Positions 9,262 through 36,615 of a stretch of DNA of 53,337 bases are shown here, one piece after another. Origin of the DNA: a virus. Taxonomy: Duplodnaviria; Caudoviricetes. Under the pieces are notes generated by a model. It had not been told where the DNA came from, did not search any database, and worked only from the letters and a program-made list of their open reading frames with translations. Position 1 is the stretch's first letter. The number at the start of each line of letters is the position of its first letter. Made by a program: the position numbers and the translations under genes. The stretch spans positions 1 through 53,337 of IMG/VR virus record IMGVR_UViG_3300031999_000027. One strand, 5' to 3'.

Positions 9262-9543
9262 ATGAAATCAAACATAACTAAGATCAAAGAGATCGATCGG
9301 GAGGCTATGGATAAGATCCTCGAACGAGCGGTCCCCTATGAGAACTTAACCGCAACCCCTGTCTGGAGACAAATGTCTATTGACGCTATCCTCTCAGGGG
9401 TAGTCTATAGGGGTAGCCGTGCTCGGGCGACCAAGGATTTAAATAAAGCATACGATGACATCTTAGATGCTATCAATTACCTCAGGTTTGCAGGCGTTCT
9501 TATGAAAGAGGAAATCGAACGACAGAAGCAGGTGAAGAAATGA
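9262..9543 (+). CDS. all-alpha NTP-pyrophosphatase-like / nucleotide-modification-associated (DUF1599-like) protein
   Basis: Helical 93 aa with DDILDAINY motif. Confidence 0.55.
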   Translation: MKSNITKIKEIDREAMDKILERAVPYENLTATPVWRQMSIDAILSGVVYRGSRARATKDLNKAYDDILDAINYLRFAGVLMKEEIERQKQVKK

Positions 9544-10355
9544 ACGAACGAAGCTCAGAAAGACTCTTCATACATAAAAGCGGTCTGAGCTCGTGGAGAC
9601 AATGTCCGAGAAAATTTTACTGGATGTATATCAAACAACAAGGCCCAGAGGTCTCAGACGAGAGCATCGCGATGGAACATGGAGCTACGTTCCATCATGT
9701 TGCTCGCCAGTTTGAGTACATCTATGACACTGATGTGTTGTTTGGTAGTGGAACTTATATCGATCGATTGAAATACTTATCGAGTTGTATTCCCAAAGGA
9801 ATCTCCAACACAATCTACGGATGGATGCAAAACCTAGTGGATTTCGAAGCCAGACGATCTTTAGATTGGACATTACCTCAGGGGATGTTCAAACCTGTAC
9901 AGATGGAAAGATATTTAGAATCCCCGGAGTTTAACTATGCGGGAACGTTTGATAGGTTGGACTATTATGATGAGGACTCTTACATCGTGATTGATTATAA
10001 ACCGAGGATATATAATATATCAATGATTAGACAGGAACAGGCGATCTACTGGGTCTTGATCAACGATCAATTGAAACTTGATAAACCAGTCAATCATTGG
10101 GGAGTCATCGCCTACGATGAGGGGGTTTATCACTCCGAAGAATTTAAGAAGGTCACATTCACAGCTCTGAAGAAGAATACGAATAATCTCTGGGAGAAGA
10201 TCCAAGAGTATAAATTGTCGGGCGATCGGAACATCTTCCCGATCAAGTCAGGGGAACATTGCGATTACTGTATGTTCTTGACGCTCTGTTGGAACGATCC
10301 AGAGTACATAGATGAAGTGATGGCTACTAAAAGAGAGGAGATCAATGAAGAATAA
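9540..10355 (+). CDS. Cas4/RecB-like PD-(D/E)xK exonuclease with Fe-S cysteines
   Basis: QCPRKF, GATFH, ERYL, GTFDRL, IDYK, QQAIY and C-terminal CDYC...C. Confidence 0.88.
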   Translation: MNERSSERLFIHKSGLSSWRQCPRKFYWMYIKQQGPEVSDESIAMEHGATFHHVARQFEYIYDTDVLFGSGTYIDRLKYLSSCIPKGISNTIYGWMQNLVDFEARRSLDWTLPQGMFKPVQMERYLESPEFNYAGTFDRLDYYDEDSYIVIDYKPRIYNISMIRQEQAIYWVLINDQLKLDKPVNHWGVIAYDEGVYHSEEFKKVTFTALKKNTNNLWEKIQEYKLSGDRNIFPIKSGEHCDYCMFLTLCWNDPEYIDEVMATKREEINEE

Positions 10356-11132: not shown

Positions 11133-11577
11133 TGAAATGACATGGAAAGAGGTTCTGAAGGGGTCAGCGGATCCCGATTTTTTATCAATAACCGTGCCAG
11201 GGGTCGTAGGAACCACCCGGCATGTAGTCATGAAGATCCCAAGAGGGAAGAGACTAAGCATGTCCAAACTCCGGACACTTATCAAACCTCTTGCGATGAT
11301 AGAAGTCAAGAATATAGCCGATCTGCCGGAGTTAATGAGGACGGATATGATAATACTCTCTCAGGTGGAGGAGATTGGGAAGCATCCGGGGCTCTTATCC
11401 ATCGGAGCAGCAATGGAGTCTGGTATGATAGAAGTAGACACTATCAACGGCAGGATGCTGTTTAATTCGTTTGCTGTTCTATGGTTAGCAACATCAGATG
11501 AGAACATCCCAGAGGGGTTCAAGAAGAACTCCACAGTGATAACAATCCCCGAAGAGGAGGATGTGTTTGAGGAATGA
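11113..11577 (+). CDS. hypothetical protein
   Basis: 154-aa ORF whose stop overlaps the queC start (ATGA). Confidence 0.55.
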   Translation: MSLIRVDEMTWKEVLKGSADPDFLSITVPGVVGTTRHVVMKIPRGKRLSMSKLRTLIKPLAMIEVKNIADLPELMRTDMIILSQVEEIGKHPGLLSIGAAMESGMIEVDTINGRMLFNSFAVLWLATSDENIPEGFKKNSTVITIPEEEDVFEE

Positions 11578-12305
11578 AAGCGATCGCCATCTGTAGCGGA
11601 GGATTGGATTCCACTGTGATGTTGTATGAGATGATCTCGAATAGAATCACTCCTGTGGTGTTGAGTTTCGACTATGGTCAGAGGCACAGGATAGAACTGG
11701 ATTTCATAGAACGAACGGCGAAGAAGCTCAATCTCCGGTGGATCCTCGAACGTATGCCGACGTTTAACTCAGCTCTGACCACAGGAGTAATGGGGGTTAA
11801 TGAGTTTGAGGAACTAACGAAGGCCATGATTCCAAAAGCTAACTACGATGACGCCTCTCAGAAAATCACAGTTGTTCCCAACAGGAATATGATCATGATT
11901 GCCATCGCTGGGGGATACGCTGTTCAGATGGGTGCTCAGGAAATCTGGTATGCGGCACATTCCGGTGATCATGCGATCTATCCCGATTGCCGAGAGAGTT
12001 TCGTCTGTGCGTTGGCCGAAGCCCTAACCGAGGGAACATATGAGAAGATTCAATTGGTTGCCCCGTTCATCAATCTAACAAAGACAGATATCGTCAAACG
12101 AGGAGCGTTATTGGGAGTACCATTCGAAGACACTTGGAGTTGTTATGATCCCCAGAAACCCCTACATTGGGATCCTCATTACGTTGATCTGCAGATGTTG
12201 CAATGTGGGAAGTGTGGAACGTGCAGAGAGCGAATCGAAGCTTTCACTAAGGCAGGTATCAGAGATCCTACTTCCTACGTGAAAAGTAAAGGAGTGAAAA
12301 CCTAG
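11574..12305 (+). CDS. queC: 7-cyano-7-deazaguanine synthase
   Basis: SGGLDS PP-loop, FDYGQRH, VPNRN, YPDCR, TWSCY, CGKCGTC. Confidence 0.97.
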   Translation: MKAIAICSGGLDSTVMLYEMISNRITPVVLSFDYGQRHRIELDFIERTAKKLNLRWILERMPTFNSALTTGVMGVNEFEELTKAMIPKANYDDASQKITVVPNRNMIMIAIAGGYAVQMGAQEIWYAAHSGDHAIYPDCRESFVCALAEALTEGTYEKIQLVAPFINLTKTDIVKRGALLGVPFEDTWSCYDPQKPLHWDPHYVDLQMLQCGKCGTCRERIEAFTKAGIRDPTSYVKSKGVKT

Positions 12306-12349
12306 GAGATTACTACTATGAATACTAATACTACTCGGGGGTCGTTCGT

Positions 12350-12766
12350 TTGATGTACCTGAAGTTTGATGAGATCACGTTTGAAGCGGCGCACTACCTC
12401 CCGGGGTATGATGGGAAGTGCGCTGGGATTCACGGTCATACGTATACAGTGAAGGACTTGGTTATTAGAGTGTCAGAGTTCCTAGATGACCAGGGGATCA
12501 TTGTGGACTTCGGGAAGATCACGGGGTATTTCGCCAAGGAGTGGGATCATAAATTCTTGATCCCGGTTGCTGGCATAGGCTATTGGGAAGACATATATGA
12601 ACACACAGGATTCAAGCCGATGATTGATAACAGAAAGGTTGTTAATTATGGCTCCGATGAATACTGTGCTGAGAGAATCAGAGATGAACTAATGGTGTTA
12701 CATCCAAACATCGCCGAGGTTCATTTCACGTTGTACGAAGGGAAGAACCATGGGGTGTCAGTATGA
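12350..12766 (+). CDS. queD: 6-carboxy-5,6,7,8-tetrahydropterin synthase
   Basis: FEAAH, CAGIHGHTY, VDFG, WDHKFL, LYEG. Confidence 0.93.
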   Translation: MMYLKFDEITFEAAHYLPGYDGKCAGIHGHTYTVKDLVIRVSEFLDDQGIIVDFGKITGYFAKEWDHKFLIPVAGIGYWEDIYEHTGFKPMIDNRKVVNYGSDEYCAERIRDELMVLHPNIAEVHFTLYEGKNHGVSV

Positions 12767-13071
12767 TCGCGTTAACTGCGACGACATCAACCTACGAGCA
12801 ACCCAAATGTCCGGGAAAGTGTTCCGAGGGAGATAACTTAGTATGTCCGTATGCTAGCTGGCAGTATCAGACGTCGTTTGTCACTGTAAACGGTCAAGGG
12901 GGTTCATCGAAGTTCACAAAGTACGTTCATTGTGGGTTGGCGACACCCTTCGTGTGGTATCCCACACCGATATTGAGCCCTTGCCCACATGCGACGTGGA
13001 CAATATGGTGTACGGCATTTGGTCTGGATTGTGAGACTTGTCCTGTGAAGAAAGCGAGGAGTGTCCAATGA
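12763..13071 (+). CDS. Cys-rich hypothetical protein inside the que operon
   Basis: ATGA overlaps with queD and queE; about 9 Cys in 102 aa. Confidence 0.55.
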   Translation: MIALTATTSTYEQPKCPGKCSEGDNLVCPYASWQYQTSFVTVNGQGGSSKFTKYVHCGLATPFVWYPTPILSPCPHATWTIWCTAFGLDCETCPVKKARSVQ

Positions 13072-13772
13072 TAGATCTAGTGGAGATTTTTAGAAGCATT
13101 CAAGGAGAAGGCCCCTTCATCGGGTCACCTGCTGTCTTCGTCAGAGTCCATGGATGTAATCTAGCATGTTCCTTCTGTGATACGAAGTACTCCTGGTACT
13201 CGAACGCCGGGGAGGGTTACAGAGAGGTCGATCCAACAATACTGATCATGGAGATTCTTGACATCGCGAGGATCAACGACATTATCGTCCTGACGGGCGG
13301 GGAACCTATGATCTATCAGGACCAGCTGACACACGTCGCTGGTGTACTTCCACATAAGATTCATATCGAGACTAACGGAACGATCTTGCCTCAGGGAGAG
13401 CAGATCCTCAAGGATATCGATCATTGGGTTGTGAGCCCCAAAGAATGGCAGAAGCCAGAGAATAGAGCTAAGGTCGAATGGTGGTTGGATCATTTCAAGA
13501 AGAATCTCACGATGAAGTTTGTTATATCAACAGAAGACGATGTCGAACTGCTTTCGGAGACGTTTAGACTTCAGAAGGCTCCGTTAGTGGTATTACAACC
13601 AGAGAGGTTCGCAATGACATCAGGGGTACCACATAATGGCAGTCAGCAGGGCCTATATCTAGAGAATATGAAGAAGCTCATTGAATGGGCGGACGCTCAT
13701 CTCAATGGCGTTAACTGGAGGGTTCTCCCGCAGCTCCATTATCTCTTGTGGGGAAACCGACGAGGAGTTTGA
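13068..13772 (+). CDS. queE: 7-carboxy-7-deazaguanine synthase (radical SAM)
   Basis: EIFRSIQGEG, GCNLACSFCDT, LTGGEP, IETNGT, VSPK, PQLH; ATG 13068 preferred over the longer ORF. Confidence 0.95.
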   Translation: MIDLVEIFRSIQGEGPFIGSPAVFVRVHGCNLACSFCDTKYSWYSNAGEGYREVDPTILIMEILDIARINDIIVLTGGEPMIYQDQLTHVAGVLPHKIHIETNGTILPQGEQILKDIDHWVVSPKEWQKPENRAKVEWWLDHFKKNLTMKFVISTEDDVELLSETFRLQKAPLVVLQPERFAMTSGVPHNGSQQGLYLENMKKLIEWADAHLNGVNWRVLPQLHYLLWGNRRGV

Positions 13773-13776
13773 AATA

Positions 13777-14448
13777 ATGAGAAACGAGCAATCACTTGAA
13801 GACACGATAGAGAAAGAAGGAGACTCAGGGTTAGAATCTACCCCGCATCATTATGTTCTGCATAATAAGGACAAGATCATGGACAAATTCCGTGAAATAT
13901 TGCTCCTATCGGGGTTTAATCCCTCGTCGAATCCATTGAGACGTACCCCGGAGAGACAATGGGAGGTTCTCCGAACTATGACAGAAGGGTATGTTATAGA
14001 CCCCACACTTGATAGAATGTATAGAGATTACGCCCTTGGAGACCTTCCCGGTGTGAGAATCTGCCCGGGAATTCACTTCGTTTCATTATGTGAACATCAC
14101 TTCGTTCCATTCTACGGTGTTGTCGACATAGCATACGTTCCTGGTAACGGCAAAGTCACTGGGCTATCTAAACTCCCTCAGCTGGTACAGAAGTACGCCC
14201 GAAGACCTCAGCTTCAAGAGAAGATGGCTGCGCAGATAGCAGACGAACTAATGCAGAGATGTGAAGTTTCCGGGGTCATGGTCATAGCTTCAGGTTATCA
14301 CACGTGTGAGATGATTGAGGGAGTCAAGGAAGGCTTCCATCGAGATAAACCTTATATCACACCAGAGATCCGGGGATCGTTCACCGCGGACACTGGGCTC
14401 AGGGAAGCTACGATGATGCACCTGGGGAGGTTGGCTAAGAATGTATGA
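13777..14448 (+). CDS. folE: GTP cyclohydrolase I
   Basis: RTPER, SLCEHHFVPFYG, GLSKL, RRPQLQE, HTC; ATG 13777 after a GAGGAG RBS. Confidence 0.95.
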   Translation: MRNEQSLEDTIEKEGDSGLESTPHHYVLHNKDKIMDKFREILLLSGFNPSSNPLRRTPERQWEVLRTMTEGYVIDPTLDRMYRDYALGDLPGVRICPGIHFVSLCEHHFVPFYGVVDIAYVPGNGKVTGLSKLPQLVQKYARRPQLQEKMAAQIADELMQRCEVSGVMVIASGYHTCEMIEGVKEGFHRDKPYITPEIRGSFTADTGLREATMMHLGRLAKNV

Positions 14449-14970: not shown

Positions 14971-15627
14971 GTGGAACACCTGATATTCGTTGATAGTCGG
15001 GAGCCTCAAGAGGTAATGCAACGCGTCTGGGATAGGAAGATATCTCATATGGTAAAGGCACTCGAGGTGGGGGATTTTCAAAATGAAAAGGGAAACGCGA
15101 TCATCGAGAGGAAAAGACCGGAGGACATCTGGGGTCGAGTCCTTAACAAATCGAACGGCTGGGATGATCAGATGTCGAGATTGTCAGACTACGCATACGG
15201 ACACAACTGTATGCCATGGCTCATTGTTGAAGGCTCATTCGAGACAGCTTCGAGAAGAACTCATGGGAAGTTTCATCCGGAAGAAACCAGAGGAGCTATT
15301 GTCTCTGCGGCCGTACGATATGGAATTGCGGTGTGGAATGCAGAGAGTCTTGATGATCTCCTCACCACAGTCTGCTCTATTTGCGAGAAAGCTGATCGGG
15401 AACTCGGGCAGCCGAAGCAATTGCCCTTCTCGAGAGTAGCTATGGACAAACGCGCTGCCATACTAATGAACGTTTGCCACGTGTCAGCCAAACAAGCAGA
15501 ACATCTGTTGCATCACTTTGGTTCCATTCGAGGGGTTCTCCTAGCCACGGAGAATCAACTGTCGATCGTCGACGGTGTAGGGTTCATCACAGCAAAGAAG
15601 ATCTGTCAGTATAAGGACTCGGTGTAG
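14971..15627 (+). CDS. ERCC4/XPF-family structure-specific nuclease with HhH domain
   Basis: VDSRE, GDF, IERKxxxD, LIVEG; C-terminal HFGSI...VDGVG helix-hairpin-helix. Confidence 0.9.
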   Translation: MEHLIFVDSREPQEVMQRVWDRKISHMVKALEVGDFQNEKGNAIIERKRPEDIWGRVLNKSNGWDDQMSRLSDYAYGHNCMPWLIVEGSFETASRRTHGKFHPEETRGAIVSAAVRYGIAVWNAESLDDLLTTVCSICEKADRELGQPKQLPFSRVAMDKRAAILMNVCHVSAKQAEHLLHHFGSIRGVLLATENQLSIVDGVGFITAKKICQYKDSV

Positions 15628-17461: not shown

Positions 17462-17784
17462 GTAAAACGACTGAAAGAATAGCAGCCGAACTTCTTCATG
17501 ATAAAAATCATGAGGAATTAATAAACTTCCCAGGTGTGCTAAACACTGTAGTTGGGAATAAGATAACAGATGGGAAGGACACTGGAGAGATCAGTATTAT
17601 ATTTCTTGTGGCTAAGAAGAAGAAACTAAGGGGACTAAAGGTAGTTGATAGGATACCACCCACCTATAGGGGTGTCCTAACTGACGTCCAAGAGCTCTCA
17701 TCTAAGGACTTCGATCTAGGACCTACGGATGCTTCTAAAATGAGACCGTCTGATCAGAAGAAACTACTTGGGGTGATGAAGTGA
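17458..17784 (+). CDS. stand-alone protease propeptide-like domain
   Basis: PGVLNTVVGNKITDGKDTGEISIIFLV...IPPTYRGVLTDVQE resembles the N-terminal prodomain of Nal1-like/S1 serine proteases. Confidence 0.5.
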   Translation: MSKTTERIAAELLHDKNHEELINFPGVLNTVVGNKITDGKDTGEISIIFLVAKKKKLRGLKVVDRIPPTYRGVLTDVQELSSKDFDLGPTDASKMRPSDQKKLLGVMK

Positions 17785-18536
17785 GCAGAGATCCTGGATT
17801 ACCTGATATTGCAAGATTTGCAAGTCCTATCTATAATCAAGGTGCTTGTGGCTCTTGTACAGCATTTGGCACTCTTGGAGCTGTGGAACTTGAGATTAGG
17901 AAGATGCATAATACCCCCGATGAGAAACTTGAATTGAGTAGACGTGATCTTTTCAGCTGCTCTGGTGGAACTTGTAATAGAGGTAACTATGTGGATGTTA
18001 CAGTCATTGCAGCTGAGAAGGGTGTCGCATTGAATGATGATTGTCCATACGATGCGATGGATCATAGCTGTGAACAGGGGAGAACGGCCGATTGGTGGAA
18101 GAGAGGAAAGAAGACTACTAAGACTATATCATTCAAAACACACGATGACATGAGAGCGGCTCTTTCAGATGGATATGCCCTTGTGGGTTCGATGGCTGTT
18201 TACACAAGTTTCTTTAACTATAGGAAGGGAGTATATCAACATCTTCCTGGTGAACGGTTGGAGGGATACCACTGTATTTCTATGCATGAATATGATGTAT
18301 CTGATGAATCGGTTCTGATTCAGAACTCATGGGGTGACTGGGGATGTCCCAACCCAAGAAGAACTGACCAACCTTATGGCTATTGTTGGATAAAGATAAC
18401 AGAACTTGATCCTGAGTCATTCAGGGTGGTCGTAAATGATGATCCAATACCAGAGCCTGGACCGGATCCGTCAATATGGGAGAAGATATGGAACTGGATT
18501 ATTATCCTCTTGAGGAGGATATTTGGAGGTAAGTGA
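17781..18536 (+). CDS. papain-family (C1A) cysteine peptidase
   Basis: NQGACGSC (catalytic Cys), GYHCI (His), QNSWG (Asn); Pro-rich linker then an amphipathic C-terminal helix. Confidence 0.92.
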   Translation: MSRDPGLPDIARFASPIYNQGACGSCTAFGTLGAVELEIRKMHNTPDEKLELSRRDLFSCSGGTCNRGNYVDVTVIAAEKGVALNDDCPYDAMDHSCEQGRTADWWKRGKKTTKTISFKTHDDMRAALSDGYALVGSMAVYTSFFNYRKGVYQHLPGERLEGYHCISMHEYDVSDESVLIQNSWGDWGCPNPRRTDQPYGYCWIKITELDPESFRVVVNDDPIPEPGPDPSIWEKIWNWIIILLRRIFGGK

Positions 18537-19291: not shown

Positions 19292-20557
19292 TTGACAATA
19301 CTATTGATGCCCACACTAGATTGTAACTTCCGATGCCTGGCATGCTTTGAAGACCCAATACACTCAAAGACTGTGGTAAATATCCCACTTAATTTAGATG
19401 CTATGGAACAGACATTAGCTAAACTTTGGGAGGACACATATTATCATGGCAGTGGGATTGGGATTCATGGAGGAGAGTGTCTGCTTGCACCACCTGTCGT
19501 ATTAGATAGGCTATTCGAGGTTCAACAAAAGTACACTGGAGGTACTTCAGTAGTAACAAATGCCTCACTGATAACTCCAGCTATTATGAGACTTTTCAAG
19601 AAGTACAAGACTGATGTGTCAGTTAGTGTAGATGGTCCGCCAGAGTATAATCTCTTGAGGGGTCCCAGTCCACTTGACAAAGACATCACGGGAGAGTACA
19701 ACAAGTTACTGAATGACAACATCAAATGGCTTCGAGAAGAGGAGATATCTGTAAGCGTGATGTGCATTATTAACAAGTTTAACTCAGGAGATGCTAAGAA
19801 AGTCAAACGAATGAAGCAATGGTTCAATGAGCTGGCTACGTTGGGAATACGTGGAGGAAGGATTAATCCAATGTATGCTGATGGAGCGGCTAAGAAATAC
19901 GAACTCACTAACGATGAATTGCTGTACGCATATATTGAGTACACTAAGATGACGTTTGAGAGCAGCAAGATGAGATGGTTGCCGTTCAGGGAAATGATAG
20001 ACAACGTGCTTAACTTCAGTTCTTCTCCATGTATCTTTGGAGGGTGTGACTTCTTATGCACACACACTGTGACCATATTCCCCGACGGTTCACTCGGTAA
20101 CTGTGACAGAACATTCTCGGATGGCGTTGGCATAAGAAGCGAGTACGGGAAGAGAGAAGGTAGAACAAGCGCCCTCCAGCAGACACAATGCGCGGGATGC
20201 AATTACTGGAACATATGTAAAGGAGGATGCCCTTGTGAGGGGGTTGACGGCGATTGGAGAAACAAAACTAGATTCTGTGAAGCCATCGCTGGAACATACG
20301 ACTTCATTACAGATTATCTAACAGGACTACTGCCAAATGTGAGAATTTCTAATGACAGTGAACCATTCAGAGCCATGGGTTGGGGTCTTGTAGACAGACC
20401 TACGACATTCGGAAACTACACTGCTAAAACACAAGCTTTACCGCAAACTCAACAGCCAAATGGACATAGCGATAGTCACGGAGATCATCACGGAGATAAA
20501 CCGCATGGTGACCATGCGGATGAGGCACATAATGATCAAGGAGGAGTGAGACAATGA
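19292..20557 (+). CDS. radical SAM/SPASM-domain protein (peptide/protein maturase-like) with H-x-D-repeat C-terminal tail
   Basis: CNFRCLAC (CxxxCxxC), IHGGE, VTNA, SVSVDGP; SPASM C...GNC...CAGC...CKGGC...C. Confidence 0.93.
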   Translation: MTILLMPTLDCNFRCLACFEDPIHSKTVVNIPLNLDAMEQTLAKLWEDTYYHGSGIGIHGGECLLAPPVVLDRLFEVQQKYTGGTSVVTNASLITPAIMRLFKKYKTDVSVSVDGPPEYNLLRGPSPLDKDITGEYNKLLNDNIKWLREEEISVSVMCIINKFNSGDAKKVKRMKQWFNELATLGIRGGRINPMYADGAAKKYELTNDELLYAYIEYTKMTFESSKMRWLPFREMIDNVLNFSSSPCIFGGCDFLCTHTVTIFPDGSLGNCDRTFSDGVGIRSEYGKREGRTSALQQTQCAGCNYWNICKGGCPCEGVDGDWRNKTRFCEAIAGTYDFITDYLTGLLPNVRISNDSEPFRAMGWGLVDRPTTFGNYTAKTQALPQTQQPNGHSDSHGDHHGDKPHGDHADEAHNDQGGVRQ

Positions 20558-21369
20558 AGGAAGTTCAACCGTTTATATCTTTATCGTGGAAAAACCAAGA
20601 AGTCAGACAGAAGTGGGAACCAATCAGACAGGCGATCTATAAGGCAACCTATATTGCAGAATATGAAATGATAAAACGAGGGAAGAGGCACTGCGACGTA
20701 TATACTTTCACTCCCCAGAGATTCGACGAGCAGATGAACTGGGTGATTAATAACGGGTTCGTACCGTTAACGATATTGAAGTCAAAGACATACGAGGGGT
20801 TCGGACACAGGCACTATCCCGCAGATAAGATGGATTGGGACGTGTTCGCATACAGTGTAATAGCTGATACTTATGAGAATGCCAAGAAGTTCCAGCAGGC
20901 GAGCATTGGAAATGTCGATCACCGGATCATAGGACAATTACTAGGCTACCCAGAGTGCTGCATTGATTTCTTCCTTCCCATTTGGCTAGAGAAACGTGTG
21001 ATGGATCCGATGTGGGAGATTGCAGAGAACACTGAAGGGATGAAAAGGACATCGACAGAAATCGAGGTCACCGGAAACCCAATGTTGAATAGGATGGCAA
21101 GGTACTTTGGTCTTCAGGTCTGCCCATTCTTCACCCACAGCTACACCTGTAAAGAAGCCATCAAGTTCAATGAAGCCTGGTACGAAATAATGCACGACCA
21201 TTATCCGTATGAATCCGAAGAACTACTGAAGCTCCTAGCTATGCCTATGACATGGAGCCACCACAACATGATCATCTATGTCGAGCATCCCTTATTCAGG
21301 GGAGCAAGTAATGGATTCGACTGGGACACGAAAAAGGTGGTTAGATGGCTAGGCTCAGCGTCTGCCTGA
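20554..21369 (+). CDS. DUF483-like protein
   Basis: GQLLGYPECCIDFF and PFFTHSYTCKEA resemble DUF483 motifs; ATGA-coupled to the radical SAM gene. Confidence 0.55.
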   Translation: MKEVQPFISLSWKNQEVRQKWEPIRQAIYKATYIAEYEMIKRGKRHCDVYTFTPQRFDEQMNWVINNGFVPLTILKSKTYEGFGHRHYPADKMDWDVFAYSVIADTYENAKKFQQASIGNVDHRIIGQLLGYPECCIDFFLPIWLEKRVMDPMWEIAENTEGMKRTSTEIEVTGNPMLNRMARYFGLQVCPFFTHSYTCKEAIKFNEAWYEIMHDHYPYESEELLKLLAMPMTWSHHNMIIYVEHPLFRGASNGFDWDTKKVVRWLGSASA

Positions 21370-22136
21370 CCGGACATTCCAGACCTCTCTTATCCCAACT
21401 AGTATTTGAGAGAGCCAAGGACATCCTAGATGGTTATGATTGTGAGTTTACGTTCGCATACGATAGAGACCCGGAATCCCCCCATGATGAGTTGATTGAG
21501 ATAGTTAAGTTGCTATTCGATATTAAAGAGGTTGTGATAAGCAAACATCACACCAAGCGAGGAGAGTTACTCAATGATGCGTTTATGAAGAGTTCAGGGG
21601 AGTATTACATATTTTTGGAGAACGATTGGTACTGGGTAGAGGATAGGATCGAAGATGCCATACGGGCATTAGATGAAGTAGACTTCGTTCGGATGGTGCG
21701 CACTCCGTTCAAGAACTTTACCACAATTAAGAATGGTTTCTGCATATTAGCTCCAGAGACAGGTTATGCGTATAACTTTAACCCTAGTGTTAGGAAAGAT
21801 GTATTCCTTATAGGAATATTCAGAGAGGATTTGAACAGCGATCAACTAGAGAGTCTTACATCGACGTTATTCAACGCTATGGGTAAAACAGCTGCAGTAC
21901 TCGATACTGATAGTTTATCCCACATAGGATTTGTCAATAGCAATGGGGTGTTGAGAGAGCAACATTTCATTCGGGAGGGGATTAAGCCTTCACTTATCGA
22001 AGTAGTGAAGTGGTTTGAGTCAATCTCAAAAGATCGGTCGCATATTGATCTTTTCGTAGAGCATCTCCAAACAGAGGTCAGAGGAGCAGACAAAGGAGTG
22101 GAGTTAGATGAAACTTTCAGCAGTAATATCCTATAG
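21345..22136 (+). CDS. GT-A fold glycosyltransferase (GT2-like)
   Basis: LSVCLT start, RGELLNDAF, YYIFLENDW (DxD-like), FNPSV, SHIG. Confidence 0.7.
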   Translation: MARLSVCLTGHSRPLLSQLVFERAKDILDGYDCEFTFAYDRDPESPHDELIEIVKLLFDIKEVVISKHHTKRGELLNDAFMKSSGEYYIFLENDWYWVEDRIEDAIRALDEVDFVRMVRTPFKNFTTIKNGFCILAPETGYAYNFNPSVRKDVFLIGIFREDLNSDQLESLTSTLFNAMGKTAAVLDTDSLSHIGFVNSNGVLREQHFIREGIKPSLIEVVKWFESISKDRSHIDLFVEHLQTEVRGADKGVELDETFSSNIL

Positions 22137-22947
22137 AGACTGCATTAGAACAGGCTATCCGTTCTTAGAATCCATCTTAAGTGTACTGCCGATTGTGGAC
22201 GAGTACCTGATAAACGACGGTGGGTCGATTGATGGAACTCTTGAAGCAACGAAACGATTAGTTGAGATGTATCCTGATAAGATTATATTATTTCAGATTA
22301 AAGATTATCCCTCAGACCATTGGCAGTGTGTCTCCGAACAATACAATAAATTACTTAACGATGCAACTGGAGACTGGATATTCATGGGAAATGCCGATGA
22401 GTTGATGCATGAAGATGACGCGAGAAAGTTTAGGGCAAAGCTAGAAGCATCACCGATTGATATCTTGGTCTACAGACACCTTCGGCGGGAAGTCTCTAAC
22501 TGGTGGAGCGAGATGGGTTCTTATGATTATTACCCTGCAAGAACTGTTCGTAATATAGAAGGGGTTTTTCAGAGTTGGGCAAGTCACGGAGGAGACGAGT
22601 TCTTGGTGCCTGAGTGGAGGTGGTTAAGAGAACCCCCTGAGTGCCAAACATTGGATGGATATATGATGTGGCATTACTACATGATGTTCCCCGAAAACAT
22701 CTTTGAGAAAAGGAAACATGATTCCGAAGAGGTAGCCACAGGAGATAAGGAAAGAATGATCCAGTACGAATGGTGGAAGGAGAACAAAGACAAGATAAAG
22801 CCGCCCGAGTGGTATGGGAAGAAAACTGTTCCGGACCAACCTAGGTCTATGCAGGGATTAGTAGGAGCCTTGAGATATTATGTTAGAGAAGAAATGTTTG
22901 ATAGAAAGTGGATACAGGAAATTTATGAAGGCACAGTATCCCAGTGA
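22108..22947 (+). CDS. glycosyltransferase family 2 protein
   Basis: LSAVI, INDGGSIDGT, ATGDWIFMGNADE. Confidence 0.85.
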   Translation: MKLSAVISYRDCIRTGYPFLESILSVLPIVDEYLINDGGSIDGTLEATKRLVEMYPDKIILFQIKDYPSDHWQCVSEQYNKLLNDATGDWIFMGNADELMHEDDARKFRAKLEASPIDILVYRHLRREVSNWWSEMGSYDYYPARTVRNIEGVFQSWASHGGDEFLVPEWRWLREPPECQTLDGYMMWHYYMMFPENIFEKRKHDSEEVATGDKERMIQYEWWKENKDKIKPPEWYGKKTVPDQPRSMQGLVGALRYYVREEMFDRKWIQEIYEGTVSQ

Positions 22948-24269
22948 GCCACATCATCGTGAGCTATATCTGTATGGTAGTTGGTGTGGGTGTCTACATG
23001 TGCAGTATTTGAATGTGGTGTGTTAACATGCGGAACATTCCCGTGGGAGTTTGAATGATTATTCACATGCGGTGTATTAACATAGCTATTGTAATGTGGA
23101 GTGTTTTCATGCGGAATGTTAGTGTGGCTGTCGCTATGCGGTGTATCCTCATGCACATCTCCGTGTGTATTAGTATGGGTATCTACATGAGCTGTGTCGC
23201 TGTGGACATCTGAGTGAGTGTTCACATGATCGTTCACATGGGCTGTATTGGTGTGGGTATTAGTATGAGGAGTATTATAGTGAGGAGCGTTGCTGTGACT
23301 GTCATTGTGTGCAAGGTCATCATGGACATCTGAATGAGTATCAGCATGGGCACTATCTGAGTGAGTATTGGAATGAGTGTTACTGTGTGGTATATTTTGA
23401 TGTTCCTCAAGCTGGCGGTCAGTATGCGGAACATCTGAGTGAGTATCCGAATGAGAGTTACTATGAGGGGTGTTCGAGTGAGTATTTGAGTGATCATTTA
23501 CATGAGCCACATTGCTATGAGTATCACTATGCGATGTATCACTATGAGAAACATCACTATGGCTATCAGCGTGTGCCGTATCGTCATGAACATCGGTGTG
23601 AAGATTTGTATGAGTGTTGGTATGAGGAGTATTTGCGTGAGGAACGTCTCCGTGAGTGTTTGAATGGTCATTTATGTGCACATTGTCGTAATGGGCATCC
23701 GCATGGGCTGTATCAGTATGAGAGTCACTGTGACTATCATAGTGTGCGGTGTCCTCGTGAACGTCACCATGAGTGTTTGTATGAGTATCTACATGGGGCA
23801 CATTTGAATGGGGGGTATTGACATGAGGAACATTACTGTGGGTATTTAAGTGAACAACATTCGCATGTTCCCCCTCCCTTAATAGCCTCCAAGAGCGAAT
23901 ATCTCCAGTAGATTGATACCTAACGGGAGACGCTTCAGGATGATCAGTTTGTACGGTGTAAATAGACTTCGCGGCAACCGAAGTTCGAATCCGTGGAACT
24001 CCACCTACACCAGTAGCCCCATCTGCTGTTGCTACTATAGTGATTGGAACATACGGTGTATCTAAATGTGCCTTATCTACGTGAACATCGGCGTGCGAAT
24101 CAACGTGGGTATCGGTATGTGAATCCCAATGCTCAGGAGACAGATCCACATCTGTATGATTCTGATGAGGAACATTACTGTGAGTATTCGTATGGGTATT
24201 CATATGGGTATTTTCATGCACGATGTTGACGTGCCCAGCGAGGCGGAGCCCATCATACTGATTCGGCAT
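22923..24269 (-). CDS. H-x-[D/N] repeat protein, last gene of the tail operon (putative tail-tip/fibre protein and radical SAM substrate)
   Basis: 448 aa; 81 H-x-D/N tripeptides by manual count, mostly spaced 4-5 aa; start overlaps the stop of the 984-aa tail gene (TAATG). Confidence 0.85.
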   Translation of the reverse strand: MPNQYDGLRLAGHVNIVHENTHMNTHTNTHSNVPHQNHTDVDLSPEHWDSHTDTHVDSHADVHVDKAHLDTPYVPITIVATADGATGVGGVPRIRTSVAAKSIYTVQTDHPEASPVRYQSTGDIRSWRLLREGEHANVVHLNTHSNVPHVNTPHSNVPHVDTHTNTHGDVHEDTAHYDSHSDSHTDTAHADAHYDNVHINDHSNTHGDVPHANTPHTNTHTNLHTDVHDDTAHADSHSDVSHSDTSHSDTHSNVAHVNDHSNTHSNTPHSNSHSDTHSDVPHTDRQLEEHQNIPHSNTHSNTHSDSAHADTHSDVHDDLAHNDSHSNAPHYNTPHTNTHTNTAHVNDHVNTHSDVHSDTAHVDTHTNTHGDVHEDTPHSDSHTNIPHENTPHYNSYVNTPHVNNHSNSHGNVPHVNTPHSNTAHVDTHTNYHTDIAHDDVAHWDTVPS

Positions 24270-27223
24270 TAAAGATCAGTCCTAAACCACAGTTCGCCGG
24301 TCCGCGGAGTACTTGGATCGCCTGTTTTAAGAGGAAGTATTAGGTGAGCATCCACGTCACTTAAATCTAACGTCGCGAACACATCGATATCACCATCTCC
24401 TCGGAATTTCAACGAGTACCCACCTGATTCTAATGTAATATCCTGAGTCCCCAGAACGGTCATTATTTTGAGTGTACCTCTGCCACCTTCCTCAGTACCA
24501 TCGATCCATCCTATAGGGGTACCATCGGCTTTCTGAATCCCATATTGACCTATCCCCTTTACAGTCACTCCATTAGAGTCTAATATGACATTCCCCCCTC
24601 CGGCAGTAGCTTTGCCCGTAGCTGCATCCAAGGAGAACTGCAACGTTCCTGTTCCCGCAGCTCCAGAATACCCCTTGATCCCAGCTTCGTTGATCATTAT
24701 ATGCCCATCAGCAACGTAAGCCTCCCCTGTTGTCGGATCGAGTTTAAATGTGATCGTTGATGCGTCTTTCATCCCCACAATCCCTAGAGTGTCCGACATG
24801 ATGATTTTCGGATAACCAACCGATGTCTGGATCAAATGACCAGTGATCGTCATCGTAGCCTCAAGATGATCCACAATGATCGACTTAACTGTAATGACCC
24901 CTCCTGATATCGTCGGGAGATAACTATCAAACATTAATATCGTCGGGGGTTTGGAACTATCGGTCTCAACCTTCACTATCGCAATCATTCCAAGACCAGG
25001 TCCTGTTGCTGCAGCATGATCAGTGGTTTGACGTAAAGTTGTGGATGCATCCCAGTAACAGTACCAAACCCCTGCAGCTAAAGTGATCCTTGACGCATAG
25101 AGTAACGCGTCGATTGTCTTAGAACTTCCATCGGAGAATGTCACCTTGGCATTATCAGTGATCGCCCCACCCTTTCCCCAGTAGAACTTATTATTCGACG
25201 GAGTCGCAGAATCGTAAGTAACATACAAGTCCGACGTCCAGGGTCTTAACTCAACATTCAGATCAATCGCCGAGAGTTTTAATGGAGTAGCAACGACCGA
25301 ACTCGTAGCGGCCGATATGTTCTTCGACGTATCAAAGGCCTTCACCCAGAAATACTGTGGAACGTAATCGGATGTTGTCTCTACTACCCAGGCGAAGAAG
25401 TTAGTATTAATCACCGCTATCGGATCTGCAGGGATGCTGTTCGTTGTGTTCCGATAAACTAAGTATCCAGCTAAGTCAGCTTCTGTGTTCACCGTCCATC
25501 GGACAATCACCCCCCCAGGGATTCCAGTAGCTCCTAATCCAGTGGGCACTCCCGGAGGGGTCGTGTCTGTTGCTGCTAATTTATCGACAATCGTCGTCCA
25601 TGGGGAGTACTTATTAAGTTTGGATATCGCCACTGCTTGGAATTTATAAACCAATCCCGGCATACATCTAGGGATCACAAAATAGATATCCGTCCCTGAC
25701 CCCGGATCATCCATAAACAACGTCGTCCAATTCGTTGTGCCGTCGATTCTGACTCTCAACGCATACTGAGTAGCCCCAGTGACTCTAGCTATCTTAACAT
25801 CAAACGTGATCGACACTGTACCATCTGCGGCAATGGCCGATGTTGTTGTAATATCTGACGCGTCGAATCCCGCTGGAGCGGCCAAAGTCGTTCCATAAAG
25901 TTGACCTTCTCCCAAGGTTGTTCCCTTACCTTGGAAGGTTTCAATAGTTAACGAATTAACCCCATCACAGGTGATCTTCGCTAAGAGACCTTTCACGTTC
26001 CCTACGCAGTCACTATACAACTGAGAATAGGTCAGTGCCGCGACCGGCCATAACCAATAAACATACGTGGTTCCCACAGATACAGTGATCGTCTGCTGAG
26101 GAGTCAGATCGATCACTAATGTATCTCCATCAGCGAAGTTGATATTCCCATCCGCCGGTGGGGTAGCCCCGTTGACATTCACTGTGTAGACCGGATCGAT
26201 TACATCTACACTGAACACTATATCGGAATTCCAACCTTGAGAGCCCTTAGGGATCGCTGACGTTATATAAATGCCAAACTCCTCATACTTCGTCAGATCG
26301 ATCACTCTGTCTTCCAACGTCTTATTTGGTGCGTTGATTGATATAAACACCTGATCGAGTCTTCGGACTATCCTCGTGATCCTCTCCGTGGTTCCAGTTA
26401 ATCCTAACGCAGGAACAGTTAACGCTACAGTATCCCCTAGAGATATCACTCCAGAGTCATTCAACGATACTTCTAACTGACTGGGACCGTCTTCGACGTT
26501 CATCTCATTATAATATTTAAGAGCTAACAAATTTAACGTCGTGACATCTGCGGCTTTCTTCTCGGTAAATGATCTTATCTTAGTTCCTAATCCATCATTA
26601 TAGAACCCCTCTAAATACGCCCCAGCTGCGTTTTGTCCTCTAACGTAAACTATATTGACCTTTCCTACTCTATTTTTCATCCTTGACGTCTCTATATCCT
26701 GAATGATCGTGAGAGCTCCTTTATAAGAACCTCTCAGGCCGACGACAAATGTATTCGTCGCTTCAACATAATAATAGTCTGTGTTCGCAATATCCGCTAG
26801 GAACTTTCCAGCATCAAAACATGACGCTCTAGCGAAACGTACAGAAATAACCGGATCAGTCGGCGCAGTCCATGAGACCACAACCCCTGCGGCGAGTCCG
26901 ATGGCAGTCAATATCGTCGACGCAGCGGTCGCCACGTAATTCTCCGTGATCCCCTTGAACGCCATCTTGTAATACACGCTAGGAATGATGCTCGTTTCTA
27001 GAACATCTGCAGCGTGATTCGCTCCGGTGCAGGTTCCGGAGAATAGCAAAGTTGATCCTCCGGTAGTCCACCTCAATGTCGCAGGGCAGTCACTGTTGAC
27101 AATCGTTCGATTCCCTGACGTATTCGGGAGAAATATCTTGCATATCTCCGTACCATTGAGGTTCTCATCTGACTCAGATAACCAACCAGTGGATCCCCCG
27201 ACGATAGACTCATATCCCGTCAT
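24269..27223 (-). CDS. tail tip/baseplate hub protein with fibronectin type III domains
   Basis: 984 aa after the tape measure and Dit-like genes; FN3 signatures (YKFQAVA, DTTPPGVPTGL, DLAGYLVYR, YFWVKAFD). Confidence 0.75.
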   Translation of the reverse strand: MTGYESIVGGSTGWLSESDENLNGTEICKIFLPNTSGNRTIVNSDCPATLRWTTGGSTLLFSGTCTGANHAADVLETSIIPSVYYKMAFKGITENYVATAASTILTAIGLAAGVVVSWTAPTDPVISVRFARASCFDAGKFLADIANTDYYYVEATNTFVVGLRGSYKGALTIIQDIETSRMKNRVGKVNIVYVRGQNAAGAYLEGFYNDGLGTKIRSFTEKKAADVTTLNLLALKYYNEMNVEDGPSQLEVSLNDSGVISLGDTVALTVPALGLTGTTERITRIVRRLDQVFISINAPNKTLEDRVIDLTKYEEFGIYITSAIPKGSQGWNSDIVFSVDVIDPVYTVNVNGATPPADGNINFADGDTLVIDLTPQQTITVSVGTTYVYWLWPVAALTYSQLYSDCVGNVKGLLAKITCDGVNSLTIETFQGKGTTLGEGQLYGTTLAAPAGFDASDITTTSAIAADGTVSITFDVKIARVTGATQYALRVRIDGTTNWTTLFMDDPGSGTDIYFVIPRCMPGLVYKFQAVAISKLNKYSPWTTIVDKLAATDTTPPGVPTGLGATGIPGGVIVRWTVNTEADLAGYLVYRNTTNSIPADPIAVINTNFFAWVVETTSDYVPQYFWVKAFDTSKNISAATSSVVATPLKLSAIDLNVELRPWTSDLYVTYDSATPSNNKFYWGKGGAITDNAKVTFSDGSSKTIDALLYASRITLAAGVWYCYWDASTTLRQTTDHAAATGPGLGMIAIVKVETDSSKPPTILMFDSYLPTISGGVITVKSIIVDHLEATMTITGHLIQTSVGYPKIIMSDTLGIVGMKDASTITFKLDPTTGEAYVADGHIMINEAGIKGYSGAAGTGTLQFSLDAATGKATAGGGNVILDSNGVTVKGIGQYGIQKADGTPIGWIDGTEEGGRGTLKIMTVLGTQDITLESGGYSLKFRGDGDIDVFATLDLSDVDAHLILPLKTGDPSTPRTGELWFRTDL

Positions 27224-33861: not shown

Positions 33862-36615
33862 TCACTCCGGTGATGTATCCTCCATCTTGCGAGAGTCATC
33901 AACAAACATTCCTTTACGAGAGTCATCAACAAATGTTGCGTTTGAGGACCTCTGGACGAATCTTGCACGAAGCCACAGAACAACACTAGTAGCACTTGCG
34001 GTAGCTACTTGTGTTATATTTCCAATGGCTCTCCTTATGTGAGCTGATCCCCTGATGCCAATAGCACTAGTGACAATCGTGCTGGTTGCCACTCGACTTA
34101 GTATTAACGAGCGTCCAGTAACACCCACTTGGGCTACCCCGGCAAGTGCTGCTCTCCCAAATATGCTGGCTGCTCTAAAGGCCATTCCTATTACATTCAT
34201 TGTTCCCAAAGCAGTCCTTATAGCCGATAGTACCCTATTCGATATTCCTACTAGACTGATTGTCCCTAATACTAATCGTATAGCTGACAGCATTCTTGAC
34301 GATACTCCTGCCAGGTTGACTGTACCAATTGCTGACCGTATCTTTGAGAGTGTTCTTTGTGAGATTCCTGTTATATGGAATATGCTAACTACAATTCGTG
34401 TTGCTGTTAGAATTCTCGACGATATTCCGATCAATCCTACTGCACCGGCTGCTGATCTGATGAATCCTGCCACCTTATTTGTGTTCGCAATCATCGAGAG
34501 TGCTGCGACGGTTGAACGCGACAAGATTAGTGATCTCGCCGCTACACCAACTGAAGTGATCGCTCCTATCGTACTACGCACCGCAACGATTGCTCGGTTT
34601 GATGCTCCAGTTACTCCTATCACTCCGGTTGCTATTCGACTCAGCAGGAGAGATCGTGCTGTGTTACCGATAATAGAAAGTGCGCCTGTAGCGGCTCTTA
34701 TAGTGGACATCATTCTGGAGGCTATTCCAGCTACTGATAATGTGCTCACAGCTGTCCTAATCGAGGTGACTAATCTTTCAGCACTCCCGATGATGTTTAC
34801 TGCTCCTGCCATACCTCTAGTGAAAATGCCTGCTCTACCAGCCAAGGCAACTAAACCTTGAGCTCCTTGTGCCAGTCGGCTTAATATTAGCGAGCGACTA
34901 GCAGCTCCTATCTGTGTTATTGTTCCCGAAACCGCACGCACAACCTGCAACGATCTAACTGCATTAGCCACTGCACCGATAGCTCCACTTGTCATTCTGA
35001 CAAAGATTCCCGATCGTTTTGTGTCAGCAGAAATACTCTGTGTTGCAATCACAGACCGGAGTGCTAGTAGCACGCGAACTGCCGATCCGATCGATGAGAG
35101 TCCCGCTATTCCGCCTCTAACCACAGCGAGCATTCTACCCGGAGTAGCAATCAATGATTGAGCTGCTGATGCTGCCCTGTTCTTGATAGCTGTGCGCGCT
35201 GATACTCCAACAGATGAGAGTGCCGCTACGTGGCTTCTAACAATCACTAGGCTCCTGGTCGTCTGTCCGACTAGTGACTGCGCTCCTGCAACTGATCTGA
35301 TTGCAGCAAGCAATCTAGCTGATCCGCTTACTATGCTGATGGTGGCACTTGCCGCACGAGTAATAATGAAACTTACAGCCGTGTCTGATACTTGACTTAA
35401 TGCAGCCGATGAGCTTCTAATGGCGGCTAATAAGCGGCCTGACACTCCAATCAGTCCGATTGCCGCTATTGCTCCGCGAGCTCCAACAAACGAACGTACA
35501 CTTGCTGCGGTTACTCCAAGTGTCCCGATTGCGCTTCTTATACCAATTGTCACTCTCTGAGCCACTGATACCGTACTCATTGCAGCAGATGCTAAGCGCA
35601 GCCCAATGAATAATCGTATTGCGCTTCCGCTTAAGCCTATCGCGCTGACTGCCGCTCTACTAGCAACAAGTAGCCGATTAGTAACTCCAACTATGCTAAG
35701 TGTAACAATAGCCGACCTAACTGCGACCTTCAGACGACCCGAAACTTCAACTATGTTGATAGCTCCGATCGACGATTTAGTGAAAATGCCTACTCTGCTA
35801 GCTAGGCCAACTAAGCTTTGACCTCCAGCCGCTATTCGGATCACAATTAATAAGCGATCGGCAACTCCTATTTGCGATAATCCTGCAGCCGCAGACCTGG
35901 CATATGCTCCTACCGCCCATGTCACGACGAGTTTCGTGGCATCAACGAATACCTCATAGTTGGCCTCTAGGTAGCCCACGGCAGTTGCGGCTATTCCGAT
36001 AGCCGATGCCGCTACTCGAGTTCCTACCAAGTTTCTTGCAGTACTAGCCGCTTGTTGGATTGCCGCTACTACACTTCTAGTATAAGACACAGGCCATGCC
36101 CAATTCGTGCTCCGAGTCTGATTCGCCTCGGCGAGTGTGTTATCGTCGATTCTTAGGTAGGCATACTTGCCGCTCTTCAGTGCCGTCACGTCGCCGTAGA
36201 AGTCGATCTCCAGCCAGTCGGTCTGATCGACAACGGTGTACTCGGCGAAGATGTAGTTCGCTCCTGTGTACGTCGTGTAGGAACTGCCGAAGTTGGTCGT
36301 GTTGCTCACGTTCGTCGCTATCGTGGTGCGGATGGTGCCGTCGTTCTTGCGGATGATGATGTCCACGTCGCCGTGGACGGTGCCTCCGTCTTTGTAGGCT
36401 CTGAAGATGGCTGCGATTGTGACCGCTGAGAGTTTAGTTATGTCCGTGAGTTGGTAGACGAATTTGCCGAATATGACGCGGTTTACAATCGCAGTCGATA
36501 CGGTGAGCGTTGTGCCTGCTGCATCGGCGGCGATTGTCTTGAGGAGATAGTAGCTTGTGCCGCCTATGGTCGTCGTGTCCTGATGGCAGTAGAGCGTCGG
36601 CATGCCGACACTCAC
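33862..36615 (-). CDS. fibre-like protein with about 34 copies of a 20-aa Arg/Ala/Ser/Ile repeat
   Basis: 917 aa; period-20 repeats with R at positions 1 and 15 (e.g. RSAIGTVNLAGVSSRMLSAI). Confidence 0.75.
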   Translation of the reverse strand: MSVGMPTLYCHQDTTTIGGTSYYLLKTIAADAAGTTLTVSTAIVNRVIFGKFVYQLTDITKLSAVTIAAIFRAYKDGGTVHGDVDIIIRKNDGTIRTTIATNVSNTTNFGSSYTTYTGANYIFAEYTVVDQTDWLEIDFYGDVTALKSGKYAYLRIDDNTLAEANQTRSTNWAWPVSYTRSVVAAIQQAASTARNLVGTRVAASAIGIAATAVGYLEANYEVFVDATKLVVTWAVGAYARSAAAGLSQIGVADRLLIVIRIAAGGQSLVGLASRVGIFTKSSIGAINIVEVSGRLKVAVRSAIVTLSIVGVTNRLLVASRAAVSAIGLSGSAIRLFIGLRLASAAMSTVSVAQRVTIGIRSAIGTLGVTAASVRSFVGARGAIAAIGLIGVSGRLLAAIRSSSAALSQVSDTAVSFIITRAASATISIVSGSARLLAAIRSVAGAQSLVGQTTRSLVIVRSHVAALSSVGVSARTAIKNRAASAAQSLIATPGRMLAVVRGGIAGLSSIGSAVRVLLALRSVIATQSISADTKRSGIFVRMTSGAIGAVANAVRSLQVVRAVSGTITQIGAASRSLILSRLAQGAQGLVALAGRAGIFTRGMAGAVNIIGSAERLVTSIRTAVSTLSVAGIASRMMSTIRAATGALSIIGNTARSLLLSRIATGVIGVTGASNRAIVAVRSTIGAITSVGVAARSLILSRSTVAALSMIANTNKVAGFIRSAAGAVGLIGISSRILTATRIVVSIFHITGISQRTLSKIRSAIGTVNLAGVSSRMLSAIRLVLGTISLVGISNRVLSAIRTALGTMNVIGMAFRAASIFGRAALAGVAQVGVTGRSLILSRVATSTIVTSAIGIRGSAHIRRAIGNITQVATASATSVVLWLRARFVQRSSNATFVDDSRKGMFVDDSRKMEDTSPE

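Follow-up and report, generated by a model that had tools for sequence, protein, structure and literature searches.

Triceptides are three-residue cyclophanes, closed by a link from an aromatic ring to the β-carbon of the third residue in an aromatic-x-X3 motif (PMC11499958). The enzymes HaaB, YhhB and HtkB make links from C2 of His to a β-carbon on the motifs HAA, HNR and HTK, respectively, and HtkB also links a Phe variant. Cyclophane formation by radical S-adenosylmethionine (SAM) enzymes has so far been known from short ribosomal peptides. Here we describe a viral locus that may extend this chemistry to a structural protein. The window, meaning the whole stretch of DNA analysed, is one linear virus record (IMG/VR record IMGVR_UViG_3300031999_000027; 53,337 bases, estimated to be 89% complete), and the gene in question encodes a His-x-Asp/Asn repeat protein at the end of a tail and fibre gene block, beside a cassette headed by a radical SAM enzyme. 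We give slightly better than an even chance to the reading in which this cassette acts on the triplets, a staple from aromatic ring to β-carbon, as in triceptides, being the likeliest product.

The locus shares with the triceptide systems both a motif and a kind of enzyme. The same aromatic-x-X3 order recurs (81 H-x-[D/N] and one Y-x-N), with His as the chief aromatic residue and Tyr or Phe accepted in its place, and a maturase with a CxxxCxxC motif and SPASM-type Cys residues is encoded beside the putative substrate. Unlike the triceptide systems, this one would act on a 448-residue tail-block protein with about 82 motifs, a folded domain and no leader. Position X3 is here Asp or Asn, a DUF483-like partner and glycosyltransferases accompany the enzyme, and the enzyme itself misses the cut-off of each curated family.

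The closest genetic parallel is the 'rSAM module' of the Thermus phages Cumys and phiMa, which comprises a radical SAM gene, a DUF483 gene and a third, unknown protein, and which has deazapurine neighbours in cyanobacteria (bioRxiv 10.1101/2024.08.14.607894); the available portion of this preprint does not mention repeats. The locus described here has a homologous radical SAM gene with a DUF483-type partner directly after it, and its third protein is the repeat protein. The Cumys module sits after the tail-fibre genes, and here the repeat gene ends the tail block. Two features set our locus apart from the Cumys/phiMa module: the repeat gene runs towards the enzyme gene instead of preceding it, and there are two additional glycosyltransferases.

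Three further systems offer partial parallels. The needle of phage T4 gp37 holds seven iron ions by His residues along its length (PMC6957217; PMC11705849). In both cases the gene belongs to a fibre block and His recurs on one face, and the present chain may, like that of the fibre-tip protein gp37, run out to a tip and back; the present protein differs in having no H-x-H and no match to a fibre family, a period of 4-5 rather than about 10 residues, aromatic replacements of His and a radical SAM cassette. The Hxs system, according to the name of its NCBIfam model, likewise pairs H-x-S repeat peptides with radical SAM enzymes, whereas the HxsB model scores our enzyme at 34.3 bits against a cut-off of 370. 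The anaerobic sulfatase maturase is the nearest solved SPASM enzyme; its model nevertheless gives 60 bits against 349, and the repeat protein has neither Cys nor a sulfatase motif.

A literature search found no paper that connects phage proteins bearing repeats of this kind with a radical SAM enzyme, the supplementary precursor lists of the triceptide papers lying outside that search. In the literature searched, the system is not described beyond the unexplained 'rSAM module'. New here are the table of His substitutions, the complementarity of Asp and Asn, the mirror-layout statistics and the finding that the first repeat block is inserted into a conserved domain. If stapling does occur on whole viral fibre proteins, it would represent a class of post-translational modification of proteins that is new, together with a new route to rigid, stable fibres, and would explain a gene module of cultured Thermus phages to which no function has been assigned. 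In the boldest form of the reading, the virus particle would carry a poly-cyclophane protein material, and peptide-antibiotic chemistry would have been brought to a whole structural protein.

The triplet pattern and the residues that replace His

The repeat protein contains 82 His residues, 81 of which start an H-x-[D/N] triplet; the sole His outside the rule, H110, lies within the non-repeat domain. Shuffling the protein 2000 times gives an expectation of 17.7 ± 3.3 such triplets, with a maximum of 28. Position 3 of the unit is Asn in 42 cases and Asp in 40, and nothing else. Position 2 is variable (Ser 24, Thr 15, Val 13 and others), position 4 is mainly Thr, Val or Ser, and an optional position 5 is chiefly Pro (17) or Ala (12). 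Successive His residues are 4 residues apart in 42 instances and 5 apart in 33. Cys is absent, and the H-x-H count is 0.

The initial annotation of this DNA had described three blocks of 13, 34 and 34 motifs, separated by a non-repeat domain of about 60 residues and by the sequence RQLEE, with position 3 always Asp or Asn, a variable position 2, short linkers and one in-register Tyr-for-His swap. Our recount agrees throughout, with 35 units in the last block if the Tyr unit is counted, and the swap is the Y-V-N unit at residues 396-398. The annotation had also set the pattern apart from the H-x-H sites of the other fibre gene, which number 18 in the 784-residue tail-fibre protein as against none here.

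At the DNA level, Tandem Repeats Finder detected just four arrays in the repeat gene, of 2-2.8 copies each, and the families of direct repeats are 60-80% identical. Synonymous codons are mixed, with His encoded by CAT 50 times and by CAC 32 times, and Ser by all six of its codons. With arrays so small, copies so divergent and codons so mixed, the pattern is not the product of recent slippage and is held at the protein level, as had been proposed from the codon divergence.

A word-indexed search of large protein collections recovered 137 relatives of the repeat protein, and 131 clusters at 50% identity were found among 1.84 billion representatives. In nearly all of these relatives, which are 250-1300 residues long, the repeat occupies the extreme C-terminus and follows unrelated N-terminal parts, among them a Laminin_G_3 domain and an MG2 domain. 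Each of 120 listed relatives contains 17-70 H-x-[D/N] triplets. One homolog (P0006) led to a single related locus (L002), where the match covers the N-terminal part only and has no repeat tract. The repeat protein itself has no match in Pfam (E ≤ 0.1), PHROGs, NCBIfam or the sequences of the Protein Data Bank (PDB); a tblastn search of 50,697 phage records also gave none, a result of little weight because the low-complexity filter was on.

The substitutions tolerated at position 1 were tabulated in the 120 homologs together with this protein, a replacement being scored where two H-x-[D/N] units 8-10 residues apart flank an in-register x-x-[D/N]. Tyr (81) and Phe (43) make up 124 of the 159 replacements. 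The remainder are Pro (9), Ala (9), Gly (4), Leu (4), Thr (3), Asp (2) and one each of Glu, Gln, Ser and Trp, with no Cys; some of the non-aromatic replacements are probably mis-registered. A further 94 double gaps hold no in-register unit. Across 3850 regular units, position 3 is Asp in 3691 and Asn in 159, and almost never Glu. The present protein, which uses Asn about half the time, is unusual among its relatives in this respect.

Seven residues can be reached from His by one base change (Y, N, D, Q, R, P and L), of which only Tyr is common, and Phe requires two changes, which argues that aromaticity is what is selected at position 1. Position 3, by the same comparison of homologs, is selected for a short acid or amide. 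Tyr or Phe at the first position and Asp or Asn at the third together fit a rule of an aromatic ring paired with a short side chain that has a β-CH2. From the single Y-V-N unit, the initial annotation had proposed that aromatic cross-linking explains the pattern better than ligation of metal by His. A lone Tyr in one protein would prove nothing by itself; the homolog table, together with the enzyme encoded nearby, now supports the proposal. Phe at position 1 had been considered as an argument against cross-linking and was dropped, as a triceptide synthase links Phe rings (PMC11499958).

The same table bears on the metal-binding alternative, in which the protein would be an unmodified, metal-loaded needle whose paired arms ligate ions through His and Asp/Asn, with the radical SAM cassette serving another target, for example DNA. 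Positions 1 and 3 would indeed share one strand face, and an out-and-back layout with a turn at the tip (see below) resembles the gp37 needle. Phe, however, is no metal ligand and is the second commonest replacement, while the non-aromatic ligands Asp and Glu account for 3 of 159 and Cys for none; the protein has neither H-x-H nor a Pfam fibre family.

The radical SAM cassette and its linkage to repeat genes

The radical SAM enzyme carries its CxxxCxxC motif at C11, C15 and C18. Further Cys residues are arranged in a SPASM pattern (C247, C252, C271, C300, C303, C309, C313 and C329) and, like those of CxxxCxxC, are conserved without exception across 16 homologs. The gene has no match to Pfam's own SPASM model. 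The best NCBIfam rows for the enzyme are all peptide maturases (DynA, DarW, AmcB, PapB, YhhB, GrrM/OscB, HxsB, XyeB and DarE). Among them, the models for cyclophane synthases score 25.4 bits (XyeB; cut-off 450), 37.1 (GrrM/OscB; 310), 39.8 (YhhB; 445) and 59.3 (AmcB; 425). By profile, the nearest solved chains are an anaerobic sulfatase maturase (PDB entry 4k36; a full-length match at E 7.8e-30) and the radical SAM domain of ChlB (PDB entry 9gm3, E 1.2e-16). The C-terminus of the enzyme consists of 6-7 H-x-D units of its own, a tail that is kept in the consensus of the 16 homologs and could be a docking or pseudo-substrate tail.

Linkage was assessed in 21 viral loci fetched with an alignment of the 16 enzyme homologs alone. 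A separate open reading frame (ORF) with at least 8 units is present in 17 of these loci, and three more (L016, L018 and L022) have one that abuts the start of the enzyme gene. A repeat protein is thereby found next to the enzyme in 20 of 21 loci, mostly less than 100 nucleotides upstream and on the same strand. In the one exception (L008), the sequence ends 760 nucleotides after the enzyme gene. In 21 of 23 loci the radical SAM gene has a homolog of the DUF483-like partner directly behind it, one of these homologs being the annotated DUF483 protein of Cumys. The second glycosyltransferase has homologs behind the DUF483-like gene in 5 of 23 (L013, L017, L019, L023 and L028), which makes this glycosyltransferase a recurrent, optional member of the cassette. 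The first glycosyltransferase, a papain-like peptidase encoded upstream and the 984-residue structural protein have no homologs in the 23 loci. In the protein collections, two pairs of an enzyme homolog and a repeat-protein homolog (P0340/P0027 and P0382/P0118) agree in the length of their longest contig (113181 and 29714), a hint that the members of each pair may be encoded together.

Cultured phages carry the same combination. A tblastn search with the enzyme against the 50,697 phage records gave just three matches, to the Thermus phages Cumys, phiMa and phiLo; for the Cumys/phiMa type, identity is 29.6% (29-30%) over 86% of the query (E 2e-33). The DUF483-like partner matches the Cumys DUF483 gene with an E-value of 1.2e-24. 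Cumys_13, which has no assigned name and is placed between the genes for the tail-collar fibre and the 'rSAM protein', encodes 56 H/Y/F-x-D/N units. In phiLo, a gene about 4 kb from that of the enzyme has 46+32 units, and the partner is annotated as a putative methyltransferase. These phages make the question directly testable.

Taken together, the linkage, the enzyme type and the rules for positions 1 (aromatic) and 3 (short) mark the repeat protein as the likeliest substrate of the cassette. The metal-needle alternative has to assign the enzyme to a different target, for which the preprint on the Thermus module proposes DNA modification (bioRxiv 10.1101/2024.08.14.607894), and deazaguanine genes are present in the window; the virus also has a second fibre with H-x-H motifs. 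The adjacency of enzyme and repeat genes in 20 of 21 loci and the H-x-D units at the end of the enzyme itself speak against such a separation, and we regard the unmodified needle as distinctly unlikely.

A different possibility keeps the substrate and the enzyme and changes the chemistry: Asp/Asn might be β-hydroxylated or otherwise oxidised, or the triplets might be epimerised, methylated, linked through C-N or C-O bonds or turned into glycosylation sites. Anaerobic sulfatase maturases, to which the closest solved relative belongs, oxidise a side chain of a whole protein substrate, and every named model of a cyclophane synthase is missed widely. A glycosyltransferase follows the partner gene in some loci, the phiLo partner is a putative methyltransferase, and fusions of DUF483 to methyltransferases are described in the preprint (bioRxiv 10.1101/2024.08.14.607894). 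The replacement of His by other aromatic residues is what separates the two chemistries: it is predicted by a link from ring to β-carbon, while residue 3 could be hydroxylated, epimerised or methylated without it. On this ground we consider another chemistry rather unlikely.

Mirror layout and a proposed stapled fibre

Blocks 2 and 3 mirror each other about RQLEE. For every one of the 34 pairs, the mirrored His positions add up to 571-573, and the two arms have identical spacings at 29 of 33 places. Over about 150 residues the two long arms are never more than one residue out of step, a fit equalled by 496 of 100,000 shuffles. A mirror at the protein level cannot arise from an inverted repeat in the DNA. 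It suggests antiparallel pairing of the two halves, and the two long blocks most probably form a hairpin that turns at RQLEE and has about 150 residues in each arm.

Relatives are often split into equal halves by a short irregular stretch (18-18, 20-20, 24-24 and 22-22 units), and their repeat tracts end 0-8 residues before the C-terminus (median 2). A gapless palindrome test on the series of His-His spacings, with 300 shuffles per protein, was applied to the 208 proteins with at least 16 units, 7 with fewer being dropped. A significant palindrome was found in 80 of them at p ≤ 0.05 and in 54 at p ≤ 0.01; these palindromes are centred 0.46-0.53 of the way along the tract, and their arms span a median of 93% of it. 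The mirror layout is common, not universal.

The arms are also complementary in the residue at position 3. Paired from the turn outward, 30 of the 34 mirrored units combine one Asp with one Asn, a number that none of 200,000 label shuffles reached. With one unit of the returning arm left unpaired, the count rises to 32 of 34. Runs on the two arms share their boundaries (3, 5, 6, 3 and so on). Sliding one arm lowers the number of such pairs to 27 and 22 at ±1 and to 21 and 16 at ±2. The same complementarity is seen in 5 of 6 pairs in block 1, in 6 of 6 and 8 of 10 in the nearest homolog (P0001) and in 5 of 5 in one hairpin of locus L019; another homolog (P0074) has ten Asn, none of them opposite Asn. 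As the coupling of Asp and Asn at offset 0 and the equal linker lengths both fit it, we infer a register in which His of one arm lies opposite Asp/Asn of the other, so that each pair of units would bring four residues together on a single face of the ribbon. A pairing of Tyr/Phe replacements across the arms was considered and rejected, with 107 aromatic units opposite His as against 4 aromatic/aromatic pairs.

These regularities set apart a third explanation, namely that the repeats are a low-complexity, largely disordered, His-rich metal sponge or spacer with no defined fold or modification. The extreme composition of the protein and the low confidence of its structure predictions (mean AlphaFold2 predicted local distance difference test (pLDDT) score of 39; Atlas model 0.36) are what a disordered chain would give. 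A strict rule at three positions, a mirror kept within one residue over 150, Asp/Asn complementarity and conservation across 131 clusters are not, and the explanation is very improbable.

We return to stapling by the cassette as the preferred reading; the virus probably staples its own fibre chemically. The repeat protein is the terminal protein of the tail-fibre block, with arrays of 7+6 and 34+35 units that would fold as antiparallel β-hairpin rods projecting from a small conserved β domain. A β strand rises about 3.3 Å per residue. The long rod, at about 150 residues per arm, would then reach roughly 50 nm. The enzyme would take a hydrogen from the β-carbon of Asp or Asn and join this carbon to the imidazole or phenol ring two residues earlier. 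Each rung would thereby be closed as a small covalent ring, giving a rigid, heat- and protease-resistant fibre that is possibly glycosylated. The complete picture, a single-hairpin rod of tens of nanometres with about 80 rungs, each ring-closed and then glycosylated and each with one Asp and one Asn, is tentative, and we hold it to be possible rather than probable. A C-C staple would leave the imidazole nitrogens and the carboxylates free, and metal binding of the gp37 kind may coexist with stapling. The mirror layout and the Asp/Asn complementarity yield concrete structural predictions.

Several observations weigh against stapling of this protein by the cassette. The substrate would be a 448-residue structural protein with no recognisable leader peptide, unlike known triceptide precursors. 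The enzyme falls far under the cut-off of every named family in NCBIfam (25-75 against 310-650 bits), and by profile its closest solved relative is the sulfatase maturase instead of a cyclophane synthase. The gene order is atypical, as the repeat and enzyme genes converge and are 2.4 kb apart, where most loci have the repeat gene upstream and on the enzyme's strand. The paper that names the rSAM module suggests DNA modification and records deazapurine neighbours (bioRxiv 10.1101/2024.08.14.607894), and the deazaguanine genes about 5 kb upstream of the cassette keep that idea alive. As regards the fold, a palindrome at p ≤ 0.05 occurs in just 5 of the 18 repeat proteins fetched via the enzyme, and clean whole-tract mirrors only in loci L028 and L015; Asp/Asn complementarity fails in L013 (12 of 28), and in most relatives both arms simply have Asp (1783 of 1972 pairs). 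AlphaFold2 run on the whole repeat protein with no alignment gave an unusable model of the repeats, at the low pLDDT quoted above.

Domain architecture and genomic setting

Coordinates of the repeat protein, its parts, the cassette and other genes of the window are collected in Table 1.

Table 1 Features of the window (positions in the 53,337-base record; aa, amino acids)
Feature	Position	Strand	Description
His-x-Asp/Asn repeat protein	22923-24269	-	ORF of 448 aa; last gene of the tail/fibre block
Block 1, aa 13-71 (units aa 13-70)	24057-24233	-	13 units, 7 + 6 around a DLSPE-type turn; run pattern 7-(6)-6
Non-repeat domain, aa 72-134	23868-24056	-	With aa 1-12 (24234-24269), makes the small β domain
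Block 2, aa 135-284	23418-23867	-	34 units; putative outgoing arm of the long mirror array
RQLEE, aa 285-289	23403-23417	-	Centre of the mirror symmetry; read as a hairpin turn
Block 3, aa 290-444	22938-23402	-	34 His units and one Tyr unit (35); putative returning arm
Tyr-Val-Asn unit, aa 396-398	23076-23084	-	In register; paired across the mirror with a His unit
Radical SAM/SPASM enzyme	19292-20557	+	421 aa; PF04055 36.5-38.6 bits, above cut-off
H-x-D tail of the enzyme	20477-20554	+	C-terminus
DUF483-like partner	20554-21369	+	271 aa; overlaps the radical SAM stop; Pfam DUF483 21.9 bits, under the cut-off of 25
Family-2 glycosyltransferase-like protein	21345-22136	+	263 aa; weak, Pfam Glycos_transf_2 19 bits, below cut-off
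Second family-2 glycosyltransferase	22108-22947	+	279 aa; Pfam 32.4 bits
984-aa virion structural/fibre-like protein	24269-27223	-	phrog_32822, E 1.1e-8; directly upstream of the repeat gene
784-aa tail-fibre protein	36892-39246	-	phrog_5795, E 2.4e-34; 18 H-x-H motifs, period about 10, four groups
917-aa ORF	33862-36615	-	
430-aa glycosyltransferase/methyltransferase-like gene	39851-41143	-	PHROG matches; weak Pfam
Papain-family (C1) cysteine peptidase	17781-18536	+	Just upstream of the cassette
7-Deazaguanine (preQ0-type) set	11574-14448	+	QueC, PTPS/QueD-like, QueE-like radical SAM, GTP cyclohydrolase I (FolE)
Replication genes	5930-8500, 9540-10355, 14971-15627	+	Family B DNA polymerase, PD-(D/E)XK nuclease, ERCC4/XPF-type nuclease with helix-hairpin-helix

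The small β domain of the repeat protein recurs at the C-terminus of at least 52 stand-alone proteins, which are 88-207 residues long. Block 1, of about 59 residues, occupies a place where, in 50 aligned homologs, two conserved strands are joined by a loop of 5-6 residues. It is an insertion into a loop of the domain, probably folded as a short hairpin; a hairpin is favoured because an insertion into a loop needs its two ends to meet. AlphaFold2, run on residues 1-140 with an alignment of homologs, predicts residues 70-130 with pLDDT values of 73-90, and block 1 with values below 50. Searches with the model of the small domain gave no row at E ≤ 0.001 against the PDB with Foldseek, a best Z of 2.0 in a wide search with VIA-align, and a best row of E 0.017, to uncharacterised phage proteins, in a library of viral structures. 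The small domain is accordingly one with no known fold match, from which novelty of the fold does not follow.

The long arrays gave little in structure-based comparisons. A search of the ESM Atlas with the repeat protein returned nothing above 0.77, and a cluster with gp37_trimer appeared only at 0.76, below the noise level. Prediction of a complex of three copies of residues 233-342 with four iron ions scored 0.00, in a run made with no controls. Block 3 stops 4 residues short of the C-terminus.

From about 49.6 kb down to 22.9 kb, the minus strand holds a tailed-virus structural block, with a large terminase and then a portal, a 784-residue tail fibre, a minor tail protein, a tape-measure-like protein, the 984-residue virion structural protein and, last, the repeat gene. 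The ATG of the repeat gene overlaps the stop codon of the upstream 984-residue gene. At its other end, the repeat gene overlaps the 3′ end of the second glycosyltransferase gene by 25 bases on opposite strands. A scan for promoters and terminators gave signal at the level of shuffled sequence.

The virus thus carries both an H-x-H fibre and the H-x-D/N protein. The C-terminal third of the 784-residue fibre and the 917-residue ORF, the latter with no match in PHROGs, consist of about thirty repeats of some 20 residues with regularly spaced Arg, Gly and Ser. On the plus strand, the deazaguanine gene set suggests modified DNA, and the genes for replication proteins and for the papain-family peptidase lie on the same strand (Table 1). 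Inside the structural block, the 430-residue glycosyltransferase/methyltransferase-like gene may provide a further modification of virion proteins.

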